Assembly (NCBI RefSeq): GCF_003334335.1
Contig: NZ_QOWQ01000041.1
Length of the DNA stretch: 39,438 bases
Origin: Escherichia coli
GTDB lineage: Bacteria > Pseudomonadota > Gammaproteobacteria > Enterobacterales > Enterobacteriaceae
Reading direction: 5' to 3' (one strand)
The position numbers were made by a program, and so were the translations under genes. Shown here in pieces: positions 469-37,069 of the stretch. The first letter of the stretch is position 1, and each line of letters opens with the position of its first letter. The notes beneath the pieces are model-generated. The model worked only from the letters and a program-made list of their open reading frames with translations. It did not search any database and had not been told where the DNA came from.

Positions 469-1052
469 TGGCATTCAGAATGAGTGAACAACCACGGACC
501 ATAAAAATTTATAATCTGCTGGCCGGAACTAATGAATTTATTGGTGAAGGTGACGCATATATTCCGCCTCATACAGGTCTGCCAGCAAACAGTACCGATA
601 TTGCACCACCAGATATTCCTGCTGGCTTTGTGGCTGTTTTCAACAGTGATGAGGCATCGTGGCATCTCGTTGAAGACCATCGGGGTAAAACGGTTTATGA
701 CGTAGCGTCAGGGGACGAGTTATTTATTTCTGAACTCGGTCCGTTACCGGAAAATGTTACCTGGTTATCGCCGGAAGGGGAGTTTCAGAAGTGGAACGGC
801 ACAGCCTGGGTGAAGGATACGGAAGCAGAAAAAATGTTCCGGATCCGGGAGGCGGAAGAAACAAAAAACAACCTGATGCAGGTAGCCAGTGAGCATATTG
901 CGCCGCTTCAGGATGCTGCAGATCTGGAAATTGCAACGGAGGAAGAAACCTCATTGCTGGAAGCCTGGAAAAAGTATCGGGTGTTGCTGAACCGTGTTGA
1001 TACATCAACTGCACCTGATATTGAGTGGCCTACGAACCCTGTCAGGGAGTAA
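468..1052 (+). CDS. tfa: Tail fibre assembly protein (lambda Tfa-like chaperone)
   Basis: 194-aa ORF; [54 protein letters not shown]... is near-identical to lambda Tfa as I recall it. ATG overlaps the stf stop (TAATG), suggesting translational coupling. Confidence 0.9.
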
Positions 1053-1101
1053 TCATTGGGATTATGCCGCAGCACGTCTTAAGCAAGAACGTGCTGCGGT
1101 T
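888..1101 (+). repeat. Direct repeat copy A (tfa 3' end plus downstream hairpin)
   Basis: About 214 bp, roughly 85-90% identical by eye to 1937-2150, same orientation. Confidence 0.8.
1067..1099. terminator. Hairpin between convergent tfa and methyltransferase genes
   Basis: Perfect 11-bp stem ccgcagcacgt / acgtgctgcgg with an 11-nt loop. A T-run follows on the + strand after about 10 nt (tattttttcc), so intrinsic-terminator function is plausible but not classic. Confidence 0.5.
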
Positions 1102-1106
1102 GGATG

Positions 1107-1775
1107 CTATTTTTTCCCTGAAGCGGAAAACATTACTACAGTACCTTGAACCTTGGTTTTAACATTCTCGAAATGCTCTGAGAGTATATGTGTTAAGCCT
1201 TCTTCGGAATCTTTTGTGTTTGAAAAGATGCCTTTCTGATTGTAAATGCGCATCAGTTTTTGACCGAAGCTATTGTGCACAACTCCATCGCCAAGAATTG
1301 TGGCTCCGTATAGAGTTCCATCGTCAGTTAAGGCCTGCGCCGCATTGCGTATTACACAGCTTTTTGTAGATATATTTCCAGGCAGGCAGTGAAGAAGGTA
1401 AAACATGGAAATGGAATCAAATTGACCATGTAACGCCGCGGGATAAGGTTCAAAAACATCATGGCTAATTTTATGTTTAATTTTTGATTCCCCAGCCCTT
1501 GTAGATGCCGCGTTCAGGCTAGCTTCGTTCAAATCCATTAAAGATATCAGACTACTCTCAGGTACGTGAGTAAGGTAAAACCCAGTTCCAACACCAATAT
1601 CCAGATGGTTGTTACCTACATGTTCCAGATAGTGTGGAAGAAGGTGTTCCTTTGTAGGACATCCCCATGCAAGCCGATTTGATACTCCCAAAACCCACCA
1701 GTCATAAAGCTTTAGGGTAAGTGGTGTGTAAATTTTAGCCCCATCATCTGTGTTTTTTTTCATTGATTTCACCAT
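1107..1775 (-). CDS. Class I SAM-dependent methyltransferase-like protein (prophage cargo, substrate unknown)
   Basis: 222-aa ORF with a glycine-rich motif I (LDIGVGTGFY) followed by acidic/hydrophobic motifs (SISMFYLLHCLPG, LTDDGTLYGATILG) typical of the Rossmann-fold MTase superfamily. No DPPY/NPPY or PCQ DNA-MTase motif. Looks AT-richer than the core genes. Start may be the first ATG or the MKKNT ATG. Confidence 0.65.
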   Translation of the reverse strand: MVKSMKKNTDDGAKIYTPLTLKLYDWWVLGVSNRLAWGCPTKEHLLPHYLEHVGNNHLDIGVGTGFYLTHVPESSLISLMDLNEASLNAASTRAGESKIKHKISHDVFEPYPAALHGQFDSISMFYLLHCLPGNISTKSCVIRNAAQALTDDGTLYGATILGDGVVHNSFGQKLMRIYNQKGIFSNTKDSEEGLTHILSEHFENVKTKVQGTVVMFSASGKK

Positions 1776-1936
1776 GTTATAGTTTTATTTGTGAATTAAA
1801 TCAATTATGGCGATGAATTACAAGGGGTTAAATGCTGCCGCAGCATAGCGATATTGAAATAGCCTGGTATGCTTCGATACAGCAGGAGACGAATGGCTGG
1901 AAGACCGTCACCACACAGTTCTACATCCAGGAATTC

Positions 1937-2100
1937 AGTGAGTATATTGCGCCACTGCAGGATGCTGTAGATCTGGAAATCGCAACGGAGGAAGAAAGAT
2001 CGTTGCTGGAGGCATGGAATAAATATCGGGTATTGTTGAATCGTGTTGATACATCAACTGCACCGATATTGAGTGGCCTGCAAATCCTGTCAGGGAGTAA
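1937..2100 (+). pseudogene. Tail fibre assembly gene 3' remnant with frameshift
   Basis: Encodes ...[43 protein letters not shown], homologous to the Tfa C-terminus. A 1-nt deletion (cacctgat to caccgat) shifts the frame before the conserved DIEWP end. No N-terminal tfa sequence upstream. Confidence 0.8.
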
Positions 2101-2150
2101 TCATTGGGATTATGCCGCAGACACGTCGTATGCAGGAACGTGCTGCGGTT
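1937..2150 (+). repeat. Direct repeat copy B (degraded tfa 3' end plus hairpin)
   Basis: Matches 888-1101; hairpin stem retained with mismatches. Confidence 0.8.
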
Positions 2151-2214
2151 AGTTTGTAAGCTTTCGATAGTGGTTGTTATTTTTGCCCTTATTTGTTCCG
2201 GAGGCCATGGTTCA

Positions 2215-2385
2215 ATGGTCCGTCTGCCCCCTGTGGTGATGTCAGCAAAATCAGCCACTGCGCGAACCACAATAGCCCGGGAAGATGCTGAAGATCACCA
2301 GGTAAAGCTGTCAGCGCAGAAACTGGAAGAACTGCTCGCATCAATGGTTAAGGATGAGGTTGATCGCAATGATGGGATTTATTGA
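2215..2385 (+). CDS. Hypothetical small protein (57 aa) in prophage terminal region
   Basis: ATG at 2215 preceded by GGAGG about 10 nt upstream; a T-run lies about 90 nt downstream (2478-2486). No recognisable motif; coding status uncertain. Confidence 0.3.
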   Translation: MVRLPPVVMSAKSATARTTIAREDAEDHQVKLSAQKLEELLASMVKDEVDRNDGIY

Positions 2386-2698
2386 CGTCAGCGAGAGCAG
2401 AAGGAAGAACTGAATAACCTGAATGATTTACGCTCAATCAGAGCGATGATGATTGGCAGTAATTAGCGGTCAATTTCGGTTTTTTTGGCTGTGCGCTCCC
2501 CGCCCAGCATTGCGCGTCAATTAGCCCCCAAAAAAACGAAAAAGTTACAATCAAGTAAAAAATTCCTTCTGCAAAACTAAAAAAGATTTCAATAAAATCA
2601 GACAGTTAAAAACATAAAAAAAGGTACAAAAAAAACATCTCAAAGTCTTGTTTTTTGCTTCAAATACAATTGGTTATTGTGTTTTTTGAAACCTACCA

Positions 2699-2815
2699 GT
2701 GTGGTACATGGATATCGATACCACCGCCAATTATAAGCTGGGCGGTGCACAGCAACACGATAGCGTACGCCTCGATCCGTGGGTGTTTATGTTCTCAGCA
2801 GGATATCGTTTTTAA
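2699..2815 (+). pseudogene. ompW: ompW 3' remnant (last ~38 codons), 5' part displaced by prophage
   Basis: Frame gives VWYMDIDTTANYKLGGAQQHDSVRLDPWVFMFSAGYRF-stop, matching the OmpW C-terminus as I recall it. Upstream sequence in this frame hits a stop and does not resemble ompW. Sits about 60 bp from the convergent yciE end, as in K-12. Confidence 0.85.
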
Positions 2816-2829
2816 TTCCGCACAAAAAC

Positions 2830-2850
2830 GACCCCGTAATATACGGGGTC
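2830..2850. terminator. Intrinsic terminator of the yciGFE operon (shared with ompW remnant)
   Basis: Stem gaccccgt / acggggtc, 5-nt loop; on the - strand it is followed by GTTTTTGTG. Confidence 0.7.
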
Positions 2851-2874
2851 AATAAGGACATGGTATAAAGGGTA

Positions 2875-3381
2875 TTATTTCTTCGCTTCTACGCCATCAG
2901 TTTCAGAGCGAATTAAAAATTTCTCAGTTGTTTGCGGAATATTCTGAATCAGCCAGTCGGCCATTTGCTTTTCCTCATTTAAAATCGCTTCGATGGTTGG
3001 AATTGAAGCTGTATCACCGGCATTTTTTGCTGCTGCTAATAGTGAGGTGTAACAGGCGATTTCAAATTGCTCGAAGACATATCCGCTAATAGAGCCTTTG
3101 ACTATTTCATCAGAAGGGAATATACCACCGATTGACTGCCCAAGCGCAGCCATTTTACTCATGGAATCTTTAATGACTGAACGTGAAATGTCATTACGAT
3201 CAAGAATAGTTTCCAGTTGAACAATCTGGTTTTTGGTTTCACTAAGATGTTGTTCAATACGAGCGCGTAGTTCAGGATAATTATCTATACGGCTGGCCAT
3301 GGATTCAAGCATAGATTCGGCTTGCTTTTCCATTGCGTGGGCGTCACGTAACCAGTCATGATAATGTTCAATACGATTCAT
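2875..3381 (-). CDS. yciE: Ferritin-like DUF892 stress protein YciE
   Basis: 168 aa, MNRIEHYHDWLRDAHAMEKQAE... recognised as E. coli YciE. Confidence 0.93.
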   Translation of the reverse strand: MNRIEHYHDWLRDAHAMEKQAESMLESMASRIDNYPELRARIEQHLSETKNQIVQLETILDRNDISRSVIKDSMSKMAALGQSIGGIFPSDEIVKGSISGYVFEQFEIACYTSLLAAAKNAGDTASIPTIEAILNEEKQMADWLIQNIPQTTEKFLIRSETDGVEAKK

Positions 3382-3426
3382 GAAAATGTCCTCTTTATAA
3401 AATGACTAAAAGTTAAAATTCATATT

Positions 3427-3927
3427 TCAGGCTTTATTTTCGGCTTTCTTATTTACGTTATTAATGGCCAGATCAGTCAGTTTGATGTCGGTGGCCTTTT
3501 CTTCTTCCAGGGTTTCTTTCAGAAGCTTCGCTGCTTTACGGTAACCTAATTGTTCAGCCAGCGTCGCTAATGTCCCGTAACTGGCAATCTCATAATGCTC
3601 GACTTTCTGTGCTGCGGCAATCAGTGCGGCATCACGCACTTCGTTTTTCTCGGTACTTTCGATGACCTCATTAGCTTCTTCAATAAGACCTTCCATTGCC
3701 ACACATTTCATGCGCTTAATTTTCAGGTTCGATTCGGACTCCACAACTTGATCAATACGTTCAATCTGTCCATGAGTTTCCTCGAGGTGCGCATGAAAAG
3801 CCTGACTTAATTTTTCATTTGATGTTGCTCTTGCGAGTTTTGCCAGTGCCCGGGTTAATTGTTTTTCTGCGCTGTAGGTATCTGAAAGCAGGTGAATAAA
3901 TACATCTTCAATGGTCTTCATATTCAT
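3427..3927 (-). CDS. yciF: Ferritin-like stress protein YciF
   Basis: Recognised YciF sequence starting MNMKTIEDVF...; start moved to the ATG with a GGAG Shine-Dalgarno (track ORF extends 16 codons further upstream). Confidence 0.9.
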   Translation of the reverse strand: MNMKTIEDVFIHLLSDTYSAEKQLTRALAKLARATSNEKLSQAFHAHLEETHGQIERIDQVVESESNLKIKRMKCVAMEGLIEEANEVIESTEKNEVRDAALIAAAQKVEHYEIASYGTLATLAEQLGYRKAAKLLKETLEEEKATDIKLTDLAINNVNKKAENKA

Positions 3928-4012
3928 ATTTTTCTCCAGTGAAATCACTGCGAGCCATACGGCCCGCAGATGCAATTATCTTTATCAGCTGATATTAATA
4001 ATTAACGGTGAA

Positions 4013-4192
4013 TCAGGATTTGCCTGATTTATTACCACCGCTTTGTTGACCGCCTTTTTTACCCGCTTCAGATGCGCGTTGCGGATCATTTTTAAAATTA
4101 CCGCCGCTATGCTGACCGCCTTTACGGCCTGCGTCGGATGCCTTCTCACGGTCTTCGGCGAAATTTCCTGAACCACCACGATGTTCGGCCAT
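4013..4192 (-). CDS. yciG: KGG-repeat general stress protein YciG
   Basis: 59 aa, MAEHRGGSGNFAEDREKASDAGRKGG... with repeated KGGQ(H/Q)SGGN motifs; GGGAGA Shine-Dalgarno upstream of the ATG at 4192. Confidence 0.88.
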   Translation of the reverse strand: MAEHRGGSGNFAEDREKASDAGRKGGQHSGGNFKNDPQRASEAGKKGGQQSGGNKSGKS

Positions 4193-4544
4193 GTTATTTC
4201 TCCCGTTGCGTTGCATTGTTTCATTAATATGAGTGTTGTGTGTCGACACTCATTAAAATTAGTCGCTAATGAGAATTAGTCAAATTAAGCGCAACGAGAA
4301 GATAGAGGGAAAATATATTTTGAGGAACATTCTGGATATATTAACAATTACCTGAGGAATAAGTGACTTAGAGAAAATTATTGATTTTACTGGTGTTATG
4401 TTGCGGGATTAATTTGTTTGATTATATTACTGTTGGGCGGAAAAATGACGTAAGTTGACGTTCGACCGGGGTAAGCGAAACGGTAAAAAGATAAATATTA
4501 AATGAATTTAGGATTTTTCCGGCTTCATTAAAGAAAGTTAAAAT

Positions 4545-32766: not shown

Positions 32767-32913
32767 CAAGGACATCCTTATAGCAAAAGGGGGAAAATGA
32801 ATAATGCAAAAATTGCCGCTAAAAGAGAAGTGTTTAACAGCAACGGCTAATTATCATCCAGGAATACGATATATAATGACGGGATATAGCGCTAAGTATA
32901 TATATTCATCTAC

Positions 32914-34899
32914 TTATGCGCGCTTCAGATAGCGTTTATACCAGCGTTCGAAGGCGACGGCGGGCATCGGTTTGGCAAACAAAAATCCTTGCCGCTCATT
33001 GATCCCGTTCTTGGTTAAAAAAGCATCTTCCTTTGCACTCTCTACACCTTCGGCGATCACCTGAAGATTCAATGCCTGGGCCACAGCGACGATCGCCCGG
33101 ACCAGTGACTGCGAGACAGGTTGTTTGTGAATATCTCGAACAAAAACCTGGTCAAGTTTGATGGCATCGATCGGAAAGCGCGCCAGTTGCGAAAGTGAAG
33201 AGTAGCCGGTACCAAAATCATCCAGATGCACTTGCGCACCTAGTTGGCTAAATTGTTGAATAACAGACAGTGCCAGTTCATCATTCTCAATCAGACAACT
33301 CTCTGTCAGTTCAACATCTATAGGGCAGTATTCAAAATTGAGTTCCTGGAGAACCTGTTTCAGGGCGGTGAAAATGGTTTGATCGGCGAGCTGACGTGCA
33401 GAAATATTTACCGCCACTCGCAGGTTTATGCCTTTATCCCGCCACTTTGCCACCTGGCGTACGACATCGAGAATCACCCAACGGCCTAAAGGCACAATTA
33501 GCCCTGACTCTTCGGCGTAGGAAATGAAGTCCAACGGTGGAATCAACCCACGTTCAGGTGACTGCCAACGTACTAGTGCTTCCAGACTGCGCACTTCGCC
33601 ACGCCAGGTGATTTTCGGTTGATAGTGAATAACCAACTGATCGTTTTCCAGTGCTTTACGCAAGTTGGTATCCAGCCAGAGATATTCAAATACCCGTTGA
33701 TTCATTTCTGGGGTAAAAACGCAAAATTGTCCTCGTCCGCCTTCCTTCGCTGTGTACATTGCTGTGTCGGCGTGACGAATAATAGCCGTGCTGTCTGAAC
33801 CATGTTCGGGAGAGAGTGCAATACCTACTGAACAGCTGGTATAAACTTCAATTAAACCAATGCGAAAGGGGAGCCGTAAGCGGGTCAAAATTCGTGATGC
33901 CATTGCTTCCAGCGCGCTTTGTGAGGTGTTGGATGCCAGTACCAGAAACTCATCCCCACCTGGACGCGCCAACACCTGGTCATGTTCGAGACAGCTTAAA
34001 ATAGCCAATGACACGTCGCGTAATAACTGGTCACCAAACAAATGCCCATAGGCGTCGTTGACCTTTTTGAAATTATCCAAATCAAGATACACAACCCCAA
34101 CTTTATTGTTATCTGCATGATTAATAGCGTGATCGATTAAATCCTGCATTGCGTTACGATTCGGCAGTCCGGTGATACTGTCGGTATTTGCCAGAATACG
34201 CAGTCGCTCCTGAGCGCGGCGCTCTTCGGTAATGTCGGTGCCGGAACAGATTAAAAAAATCTCGTTTTTGCCACTGCCGCTGTGGACAAATTTATTGCGA
34301 AACAGAAACAGCCGCTGGCCTTTACATGTTGGTATCCACAGTTCGACTTCATATGCATTGCCGCTTCGAAAAAATACACGGTTATTGCGCCTGGATGCCG
34401 CAGCTTCACGACGGCTCATAAACAGTTTAAACACGCTTTGCCCAATGACGTCGTGTTCTTTCAACCCTGTGTAATCTTCACATAACCGATTGAAGCGTTG
34501 GATATTCCCCCGGCTGTCGAGAATCACTATTGCGGAATGTGCTTCAGAAACTACCTGCTCAGCAAAGGAAAGCCCGTGTGATAAATCACGAGCAACCGCC
34601 GGTGTGTCATGCCATGCAGACGCGTTGCCAGCCCATTCCCGTTTATTGATTTTTCGTCCTACCAGATGCACAGAAAGATCGCTTTCATCGACGGTCAGAC
34701 TCATCATCAGGCTGGAGGTGATGACCGTCATTTCCCTGATGCGAGCAGCCTGTTCGGCAGATAACTGCAATGTACGATCAGGTTCTGTGGTTTCGGTGGT
34801 AGAAAAGCGCAAAACATCGCTGCTTTCCGTCAACCGCCAGTATGGATTGTGCGATCCGAGAAAGTTGTACAACGTTGTGGACTCCCTAACGGTTTTCAT
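32914..34899 (-). CDS. pdeR: c-di-GMP phosphodiesterase PdeR (Gmr/YciR), PAS-GGDEF-EAL
   Basis: 661 aa; PAS domain, GGDEF domain (GGDEF motif present), EAL domain (EAL motif present). Confidence 0.94.
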   Translation of the reverse strand: MKTVRESTTLYNFLGSHNPYWRLTESSDVLRFSTTETTEPDRTLQLSAEQAARIREMTVITSSLMMSLTVDESDLSVHLVGRKINKREWAGNASAWHDTPAVARDLSHGLSFAEQVVSEAHSAIVILDSRGNIQRFNRLCEDYTGLKEHDVIGQSVFKLFMSRREAAASRRNNRVFFRSGNAYEVELWIPTCKGQRLFLFRNKFVHSGSGKNEIFLICSGTDITEERRAQERLRILANTDSITGLPNRNAMQDLIDHAINHADNNKVGVVYLDLDNFKKVNDAYGHLFGDQLLRDVSLAILSCLEHDQVLARPGGDEFLVLASNTSQSALEAMASRILTRLRLPFRIGLIEVYTSCSVGIALSPEHGSDSTAIIRHADTAMYTAKEGGRGQFCVFTPEMNQRVFEYLWLDTNLRKALENDQLVIHYQPKITWRGEVRSLEALVRWQSPERGLIPPLDFISYAEESGLIVPLGRWVILDVVRQVAKWRDKGINLRVAVNISARQLADQTIFTALKQVLQELNFEYCPIDVELTESCLIENDELALSVIQQFSQLGAQVHLDDFGTGYSSLSQLARFPIDAIKLDQVFVRDIHKQPVSQSLVRAIVAVAQALNLQVIAEGVESAKEDAFLTKNGINERQGFLFAKPMPAVAFERWYKRYLKRA

Positions 34900-34951
34900 G
34901 ATGCATATCCTCCGGTTAACAGCGGAGTCCGCGGTTAAATAAAAGGAACAA

Positions 34952-35056
34952 CATGACTTACATGAAATTAACGGCGGCTAAACGCATTGTTTTTTTTATA
35001 TATTTATTTGTAATCCAGTTTTGGAAAAACGCCAGTTTTCAAACGAAAGTCAGTTA
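34952..35056 (+). CDS. Candidate small hydrophobic protein (34 aa) in the pdeR-rnb intergenic region; possibly the K-12 small ORF ymiB, not verified
   Basis: ATG preceded by AAAGGA about 6 nt upstream; MTYMKLTAAKRIVFFIYLFVIQFWKNASFQTKVS; below the ORF-track cutoff. Confidence 0.35.
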
Positions 35057-35098
35057 AAAAATCTGCCTGGATATAACGAAGGTAGAGCGGGGAAATAA

Positions 35099-35123
35099 AC
35101 GGCCCATCCATGAGGAATGGGCC
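35099..35123 (-). terminator. rnb intrinsic terminator
   Basis: Stem cggcccat / atgggccg; on the - strand followed by TTTATTTCC just after the rnb stop. Confidence 0.7.
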
Positions 35124-35134
35124 GTGAAAGGAGA

Positions 35135-37069
35135 TTACGCGACCGGGCGCGCAATAATGCTGCGGGTTTCCATGCGGACTTCGGCAATAGTGACGTCAAT
35201 AACGTCAGTCACTTTGTAAACCGTTTCACCTTTAATTTGTACAGTGCCGTTTTCCTGGCTGCAAACCAGTTCATCGCGCACAGCGTGTAAGAAAGGTGCC
35301 GGAATAAAGGCGATAGCGCCGTTATCAACCAAACGAACACGCATGCCGCCACGGCTGATATCGACAATTTCCGCTGCGAAACGGGTGTCGGTCCCGGCTT
35401 TGTCTTTCAGGAAGCGTGCGTATAACCAGTCACCAACATCACGTTCTGCCATCCGGTTGAGACGGCGACGCTCGGCCATTTGGACAGTGATTTCATCCTG
35501 TGGGCGCGTCGCAGTTTCGCCTTTGATAACCGCTTTCAGCAGACGGTGGTTGATCATGTCGCCATATTTACGGATCGGCGAAGTCCAGGTGGCGTATGCT
35601 TCCAGACCGAGGCCAAAGTGAGGACCGGGTTCAGTGCTAATTTCAGCAAATGACTGGAAGCGACGAATGCGGCTGTCGAGGAAACCAGTTGGTTGCGCGT
35701 CCAGTTCACGACGCAGTTTGCAGAAACCGTCCAGCGTGAGCACTTCTTCGGCATCGACATGCAGACCGTGCGTTTTCAGCAACGCTGCCAGCGCGTCGGC
35801 ATTCGCCGGATCAAAGCCCATATGCACGTTATAGATGCCAAAACCGAGCTTATCGCGCAGTACGCGGGCCGCACAAATGTTAGCGGCAATCATCGCTTCT
35901 TCGACGATACGGTTGGCAATGCGACGAGGCTCGGCGACGATATCCAGCACTTCACCTTTTTCACCGAGAATAAAGCGGTAATCCGGGCGATCTTTAAACA
36001 CCAGTGCGTGGTTATGACGCCACTCGCCGCGGCGTTGGCAAATTTGCGCTAGCAAACGGACTTGTTCGGCAATTGCTTCACTTTCAGGCTGCCAGTCACC
36101 GGTATTTTCCAGCCAGTCAGAAACCTGGTCATACACCAGCTTTGCTTTGGATTCGATGGTGGCGGCAAAGAATTCGATATTATCTTCAATGGTGCCATCA
36201 GCGGAGAGCGTCATGCGGCATGCCAGTACCGGGCGGACTTCATTGGCGCGCAGTGAGCAGAGATCGTCAGAAAGCTCGCGAGGCAGCATAGGGATGTTGA
36301 AGCCAGGCAGATAGTTGGTGAATGCGCGAATTTTCGCGGCTTTGTCCAGCTTGCTGCCTTCAGCAATCCACGCGGTTGGATCGGCAATCGCCACAATCAG
36401 CTGAAGTTTGTCATCCGGCAACGCCTTAGCGAAAAGGGCGTCATCCATATCTTCTGTGCTGGCACTGTCGATGGTGACAAAATCCAGCGCGGTCAGATCT
36501 TCACGAACCAGACCTTCATCGAGCATTTCGGTAGCGACGCCGTCTGGTGCTTCTTTTTCCAGATTATGGCGTGCAAGGGTAACCCACCACGGTACAAAGT
36601 GATCGTCACCAAAAGTGATGTATTGTGTCAGTTCTGCATAGAAAGAACGATCGCCTTTCAGCGGATGACGGCGCATTTCGGCAACCGCCCAGTCGCCTTC
36701 TTTAAACTCGTGGTTCAGGCCACGGGCTGCGCGGCAAGGAATGGCGTCTTTTAAGAGTGGATGATCAGGAACGATGGCCAGACGGTCATTTTTGCCCTGA
36801 ACCTTACCCACGAAACGAGTCAGGAACGGTTCAACCAGTTCTTCTGGCTCTGCGGATTCACGTTCTTTTTCACTGTGGATCACCGCGATAATTCGGTCGC
36901 CATGCATGACTTTTTTCATCTGCGGCGGCGGAATGAAATAACTTTTTTGCGCGTCGACTTCCAGGAAGCCAAAGCCTTTTTCTGTGGCTTTTACCACCCC
37001 TTCAGCGCGTGGCGTCTGGGAATGCAGTTGCTGTTTAAGCTGCGCTAGCAGCGGGTTGTCCTGAAACAT
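35135..37069 (-). CDS. rnb: Exoribonuclease II
   Basis: 644 aa, [39 protein letters not shown]...; cold-shock domains, RNB catalytic domain, S1 domain. Confidence 0.96.

Follow-up and report, generated by a model that had tools for sequence, protein, structure and literature searches.

The short open reading frame (ORF) ymiB of Escherichia coli, which lies between pdeR and rnb, is in all likelihood not a conserved protein gene but a by-product of regulatory DNA. It is probably a lineage-restricted ORF whose frame is not under selection, overprinted on the promoter, FliZ operator and leader of pdeR, with a hydrophobicity that derives from the AT-rich DNA it occupies. The ORF was studied in a stretch of 39,438 nucleotides of E. 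coli DNA (contig NZ_QOWQ01000041.1 of assembly GCF_003334335.1; hereafter the window), and positions are those of the window, position 1 being its first letter. As a discovery the ORF has little weight, since it is an annotated gene of E. coli K-12, and the use of the analysis is for annotation. In gene lists ymiB stands as if it were a protein gene ('essential by TraDIS', Tn-seq hits). The locus also offers a clear example of how hydrophobic small-ORF candidates can come from AT-rich promoter DNA.

Identity and setting of ymiB

An earlier note on this DNA had pointed to a small hydrophobic ORF of 34 codons between pdeR and rnb, divergent from pdeR and preceded by the Shine-Dalgarno (SD)-like motif AAAGGA. 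The genes, their strands and the motif are arranged as it described (Table 1). The number of codons and the quoted peptide, MTYMKLTAAKRIVFFIYLFVIQFWKNASFQTKVS (34 amino acids, the translation of the ORF), are also correct, and only the span given there, 34952-35056, is one base off. The name ymiB, which the note had offered with reservation, is the right one. Comparison with the K-12 annotation, which the note had recommended, identifies the ORF as ymiB of MG1655 (b4672, YP_002791239.1, 'putative protein YmiB'). Positions 34880-35150 of the window are 100% identical to E. coli K-12 MG1655 over all 271 nt, the K-12 coordinate being the window coordinate plus 1,311,843, and the 34-aa translations are identical as well. 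UniRef gives the exact peptide sequence the name 'Putative protein YmiB'. The ORF is the already known gene ymiB of E. coli K-12, from which it differs neither in its nucleotides, nor in its protein, nor in its position between pdeR and rnb.

Table 1. Positions in the window of ymiB, its neighbours and the elements that overlap it
Feature	Position	Strand	Remark
ymiB ORF	34953..35057	+	34 codons + TAA; identical to K-12 b4672
Shine-Dalgarno-like AAAGGA	34942..34947	+	GGA end 5 nt before ymiB ATG
pdeR (yciR/gmr), c-di-GMP phosphodiesterase	32914..34899	-	
rnb (RNase II)	35135..37069	-	
rnb intrinsic terminator hairpin, then TTTATTT	35099..35125	-	
T8 run (A8 in pdeR sense)	34990..34997	.	length-polymorphic T6-T9 in E. 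coli
Best-conserved intergenic DNA block, ~40 nt	34979..35018	.	column identity 0.89-0.97; encodes ymiB codons 9-22
pdeR-sense motif AAAAAACAATGCGTTTAG, consensus AAAAACA(A/G)T..GTT(C/T)A	34978..34997	-	
CAAAACTG, yciR/pdeR sigma-S promoter spacer motif	35016..35023	-	inside ymiB ORF; motif as reported in PMC3367168
Putative pdeR 5' leader, ~100 nt	34900..35000	-	5' boundary approximate; placed from promoter motif and conserved element

The start codons of pdeR and ymiB are separated by 53 nt, and rnb is convergent with ymiB, which lies upstream of the rnb terminator. The GC content of the region is 31%, versus about 50% in the flanking genes. At the far end of pdeR there is another annotated small ORF, ymiD (b4772; approximately 32804-32932 on the plus strand, K-12 1344647-1344775), which overlaps the 3' end of pdeR convergently.

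The YmiB peptide matched no Pfam or NCBIfam entry in scans at E<=10, and its exact-sequence cluster holds E. coli and Shigella only. Its unbroken hydrophobic run consists of 13 residues, IVFFIYLFVIQFW, with basic residues on either side. Segments that span a membrane are about 18-20 hydrophobic residues long. The best 19-residue Kyte-Doolittle mean of the peptide is 1.55, in a segment that takes in K10 and R11, and is borderline for a membrane span. A literature search found no functional study of ymiB.

A chance test was made with dinucleotide-preserving shuffles of the 235-nt pdeR-rnb intergenic region. An ATG-initiated ORF of at least 34 codons appeared on either strand in 31% of the shuffles, and the ymiB ORF by itself is therefore not beyond chance. 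When an SD-like 4-mer was demanded upstream of such an ORF, the frequency fell to 3.4%. The combination is mildly unusual in one region and is expected many times genome-wide. On the other strand there is a second ATG-ORF of 35 codons (35004..35111, MDGPFISPLYLRYIQADFLTDFRLKTGVFPKLDYK), which starts within the rnb terminator hairpin; it is taken as a chance ORF and shows the ease with which such ORFs appear here.

Variation of the DNA and of the reading frame

Alleles of ymiB were counted as exact matches among the 5,424 complete E. coli records with a match. The K-12 allele, intact and with a run of eight T (T8), was present in 3,711 records (68.4%). An allele that combines T7 with G34984A, found for example in strain 'clone D i14', followed with 1,020 records (18.8%), T7 alone (ATCC 8739, O145, O139 and others) with 185 (3.4%) and the O157:H7 allele (R11H plus Q22amber) with 315 (5.8%). 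Among the remaining 3.6% are T6 (O121), T9, a variant with N26K whose ORF is intact, and an insertion of ISApl1. A frameshift in the T-run or the amber codon interrupts ymiB in at least 28% of the complete E. coli genomes. PGAP called five of eight sampled alleles pseudogenes ('frameshifted' or 'incomplete').

The length of the T-run decides the fate of the frame. With T8 the ORF is intact, with T7 it ends after 19 amino acids (MTYMKLTAAK(R/H)IVFLYIYL*), and T6 and T9 are frameshifts. About 22% of complete E. coli genomes and E. albertii have T7, and Citrobacter and Salmonella have the 8-nt length; homopolymer lengths in assemblies can err, although the main T7 allele goes together with a SNP and follows the lineages. 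The occurrence of T7 alone in strains of several serotypes and sources suggests recurrent slippage. The amber codon of the O157:H7 allele arises at codon 22 (CAG to TAG, C35016T), and the same substitution alters the last base of the pdeR promoter spacer motif CAAAACTG, giving CAAAACTA.

Among nine aligned alleles, 2 sites are variable in the 105-nt ORF versus 9 in the 77 nt downstream of it. The three ORF substitutions in the sampled alleles (R11H, Q22* and N26K) all change the protein and none is synonymous. In these alleles the DNA of ymiB is under constraint, and its reading frame is not.

Single strains show further rearrangements at this locus. In O157:H7 F7386 (NZ_CP038360.1) pdeR itself is annotated as 'frameshifted', and the same lineage carries C35016T. 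Strain 17MR471 has ISApl1 just past the T-run, by which ymiB is split and pdeR is parted from its promoter. In strain QDFD216 an IS1-family element (IS1X2) interrupts the stretch that matches window positions 34700-35300.

Between species, the locus was followed in a PdeR-anchored scan with one genome per species, which comprised 80 loci. Synteny of rnb and pdeR extends over Escherichia, Citrobacter, Salmonella, Enterobacter, Kosakonia, Cedecea, Kluyvera, Buttiauxella and others. Similar sequence in the reading frame of ymiB was found only in Escherichia, Citrobacter and Salmonella diarizonae, and was absent from more than 20 other genera with rnb-pdeR synteny. Full-length relatives of PdeR with 49-58% identity also occur, without rnb synteny, in Paraburkholderia, Burkholderia, Herbaspirillum and other Betaproteobacteria (loci L053-L081), and PdeR is more widely distributed than its setting in enterobacteria would suggest.

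Even where there is similarity, the frame varies. The ORF has 34 amino acids both in K-12 and at another Escherichia locus (L002, 95% PdeR identity), 40 in E. whittamii and 27 in Salmonella diarizonae. The T-run of E. albertii is 1 nt shorter (T7), a deletion that leads to a frameshift and 19 amino acids. The Citrobacter ORFs are 12-27 amino acids long with another start (GTG ATT ATG GCT...), contain in-frame TGA or TAA stops, or are fused to an upstream ORF. Two elements, on the other hand, are retained: the SD core AAGG (Escherichia, Salmonella and some Citrobacter) and the start codon at 34953 (across Escherichia and in Salmonella). The earlier note had implied a real small hydrophobic protein, and had named a frame not conserved in other enterobacteria as evidence against it; E. 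albertii and several Citrobacter do have a broken frame, and the comparative evidence gives the protein no support.

The DNA under the ORF behaves otherwise. The best-conserved block of the intergenic region (34979-35018) is kept across Escherichia, Citrobacter and Salmonella even where the ymiB ORF is broken, and its identity exceeds that of the adjacent 5' end of the pdeR coding region. All matches to an nhmmer profile of the block lay at one constant distance from the start codon of pdeR, in the same three genera. Of the 80 loci, 28 have the core AAAACA[AG][TG], read in the sense of pdeR, at 90-110 nt upstream of pdeR, versus 1.6 expected from shuffles. Thirteen of these 28 loci come from genera without a ymiB-like ORF (Enterobacter, Buttiauxella, Cedecea, Phytobacter, Kosakonia, Mangrovibacter and Pseudescherichia), and several of the 13 have a near-consensus -10 element, CTATAAT, a few bases upstream. 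Since the element keeps its distance to pdeR and is also present where ymiB is not, it behaves like a component of the promoter and transcript start of pdeR.

Substitutions per codon position point in the same direction. In an alignment of 15 sequences, the minimum numbers of substitutions at the three codon positions of ymiB were 33/31/28, and 3/8/4 in the conserved core. For pdeR of the same species the counts were 111/72/339 over the first 200 codons and 30/22/46 over the first 35 codons. The third-position excess that is clear in pdeR was thus absent from ymiB in this alignment. On these counts no purifying selection on the YmiB peptide is detectable, and a conserved function is probably absent.

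Regulatory elements of pdeR on the opposite strand

The sigma-S-dependent promoter of yciR (pdeR) was mapped by Cairrao et al. (2001), as cited in the study by Pesavento & Hengge (2012; PMC3367168), in which this promoter was studied further. [quoted passage not shown] The motif CAAAACTG occurs just once in the intergenic region, on the pdeR strand and 117-124 nt ahead of the pdeR start codon. As this only copy is inside the ORF, the core promoter of pdeR and the FliZ operator fall within codons 17-35, approximately, of ymiB. The upstream region of yciR is not discussed in PMC5635171.

From the promoter motif and the conserved element we infer the positions of the -10 element and of the transcription start of pdeR, the latter at around 34995-35010. 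The first half of the pdeR leader would then be antisense to ymiB codons 1-16, an overlap of about 50 nt. The element AAAAAACAATGCGTTTAG would itself form the beginning of the pdeR transcript or the region of its start site. The conserved element AAAAACA(A/G)T..GTT(C/T)A is common to many genera of Enterobacteriaceae and often holds a small inverted repeat, AAC-N5-GTT. It could be a transcript-start signal or an operator, and no known regulator site matched it.

A sigma-70 consensus scan of positions 34700-35300 found no promoter on either strand, which supports neither a ymiB promoter nor the weak, sigma-S-type pdeR promoter. An Rfam scan of 34500-35500 at E<=1 returned only sub-threshold chance matches and no RNA family. 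The K-12 pdeR leader has a fold z-score of -1.65, with the complement of the ymiB SD paired to the pdeR SD. This anti-SD pairing was dropped as a candidate when RNAalifold gave no consensus pair, and hence no conserved structure, in 15 pdeR leaders from three genera. The ymiB mRNA region showed no unusual structure (z = -0.50).

These elements suggest how the ORF may have come about. On the opposite strand, the same 105 bp carry the sigma-S core promoter of pdeR and the FliZ footprint, and would also carry the start region and the early leader. Read in the ymiB frame, this T/A-rich regulatory DNA spells codons for Phe, Ile, Leu, Tyr and Val; in particular, the stretch TTG TTT TTT TTA TAT ATT TAT TTG TAA T yields the hydrophobic core of the peptide. 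Conservation of the sequence would stem from pdeR regulation and not from the peptide, and with conservation due to pdeR regulation, ymiB would be free to open, close and change length between and within species. In K-12, the SD motif and ATG may permit some translation if a plus-strand transcript exists.

Alternative readings and known systems

Transposon data have placed ymiB among candidate essential genes. One TraDIS dataset contains a single insertion in its 105 bp (index 0.0095 versus 0.13 for pdeR) and lists it as 'essential by TraDIS only', and a second dataset of the same paper gives an index of 0.029 and the class 'unclear'. In a Tn-seq study, ymiB received 990-4,210 reads in two K-12 backgrounds versus 5 in an ECA-PG-only strain (PMC8609368 Table S2). 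Essentiality is ruled out by the natural lesions in the ORF, namely frameshifts, the amber codon and IS insertions, and the 'unclear' class and the 990-4,210 reads in the two K-12 backgrounds also speak against it. The low density of Tn5 in a stretch of 31% GC may be an insertion bias, and the depletion in the ECA-PG-only strain may reflect either sampling noise, with a target of 105 bp, or an effect on the regulation of pdeR. Neither the TraDIS nor the Tn-seq data separate the peptide from the pdeR promoter. Any insertion or deletion in ymiB also destroys the pdeR promoter and FliZ operator, and ymiB phenotypes are therefore possible pdeR regulatory effects.

With regard to expression, ymiB has been described as lowly expressed (PMC12704781). 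In the published supplements searched, neither ymiB nor pdeR is listed. The number b4672 falls among the b-numbers given to 18 new small proteins by Hemm and colleagues in 2008, which were reportedly detectable as chromosomal SPA-tag fusions. Some translation of YmiB in K-12 is therefore plausible. A translated ORF is not necessarily a selected one, and translation in K-12 would thus not contradict an ORF overprinted on pdeR regulatory DNA.

The by-product reading, a functional small protein and a cis-acting transcript are mutually exclusive, and several of the findings above weigh on more than one of them. Thus the retention of AAGG and ATG, together with the 3.4% of shuffles that give an ORF with an SD motif, counts against a by-product, as do the low number of TraDIS insertions and a Tn-seq depletion confined to the ECA-PG-only strain. 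Likewise, 68% of E. coli keep the exact K-12 sequence, as purifying selection would also give. All of this would suit a real, young, lineage-restricted small inner-membrane protein that is functional in roughly 70% of E. coli, an Escherichia gene with relics in Salmonella and Citrobacter that was cheaply lost in B2, O157:H7 and others. A well-spaced SD motif, a hydrophobic core with basic flanks, the K-12 annotation, the UniProt/UniRef protein entry and a possible detection as an SPA-tag fusion by Hemm and colleagues also favour such a protein. We nevertheless consider it unlikely. The frame has no third-position excess, is broken in E. albertii and several Citrobacter, is absent from other syntenic genera and is interrupted by several types of lesion in at least 28% of E. 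coli, and the 13-residue run is short for a membrane span. Moreover, the pdeR promoter and leader fully explain the conservation, and transposon data that are blind to peptide versus promoter, with K-12 reads that show insertions to be tolerated, do not help the protein.

Frameshifts would also be tolerated if plus-strand transcription or translation acted in cis on pdeR, by an excludon-like interference in which the peptide sequence is irrelevant; ymiB does cover the pdeR promoter and about 50 nt of the leader in antisense. This is very improbable, however, given that the consensus scan found no plus-strand promoter and that ymiB RNA is reported to be lowly expressed. In addition, ExcludonFinder lists ymiD-pdeR, yciZ-ymiD and a 'noncontiguous operon' pdeR-ymiD-yciZ, but ymiB-pdeR is not among its overlapping pairs. 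The by-product reading has a strong form, in which the ORF is pure chance, untranslated and without meaning beyond the regulatory DNA of pdeR; it lies inside that reading and takes no separate share. The shuffles that yield ORFs as long in 31% of cases, the 35-codon ORF on the other strand and all the comparative evidence against a conserved protein agree with this form. It is still somewhat doubtful, as the SD/ATG pair is kept in Escherichia and Salmonella, the K-12 curators have kept ymiB as a gene, and a tagged product may have been detected.

A more speculative and rather improbable idea concerns the T8/A8 run, at or next to the pdeR start. The run may be a slippage-prone, lineage-structured switch (T6-T9) and, with the O157:H7 spacer change, could tune the sigma-S/FliZ-controlled expression of PdeR, a c-di-GMP trigger enzyme, and through it curli and biofilm output; or else ymiB would be a young de novo gene on promoter DNA. 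If the T-run does tune pdeR, the opening and closing of ymiB would be a passenger of that variation.

Besides ymiB of K-12 itself, a known system at this place is the published sigma-S promoter of yciR/pdeR with its FliZ operator, which occupies the same DNA on the opposite strand and which the published work presents with no mention of ymiB. The present analysis adds that the AAAAACAAT..GTTCA element is conserved more widely and that the T-run is polymorphic.

Validated small membrane proteins of E. coli of up to 50 amino acids, such as AcrZ, MgtS and YohP, resemble ymiB in size, in an SD motif and ATG, in an intergenic position and in a hydrophobic centre. In contrast to them, ymiB has a hydrophobic run of just 13 residues, a frame that is not conserved between species and shows no codon-position signature, lesions of its ORF in at least 28% of E. 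coli genomes, and the label 'putative protein'. There is also a likeness to the non-conserved or 'proto-gene' ORFs on regulatory or intergenic DNA, which form a concept and not a defined family. Like these, ymiB is lineage-restricted, has variable boundaries, appears to be free of purifying selection and seems to take its composition from the underlying DNA.
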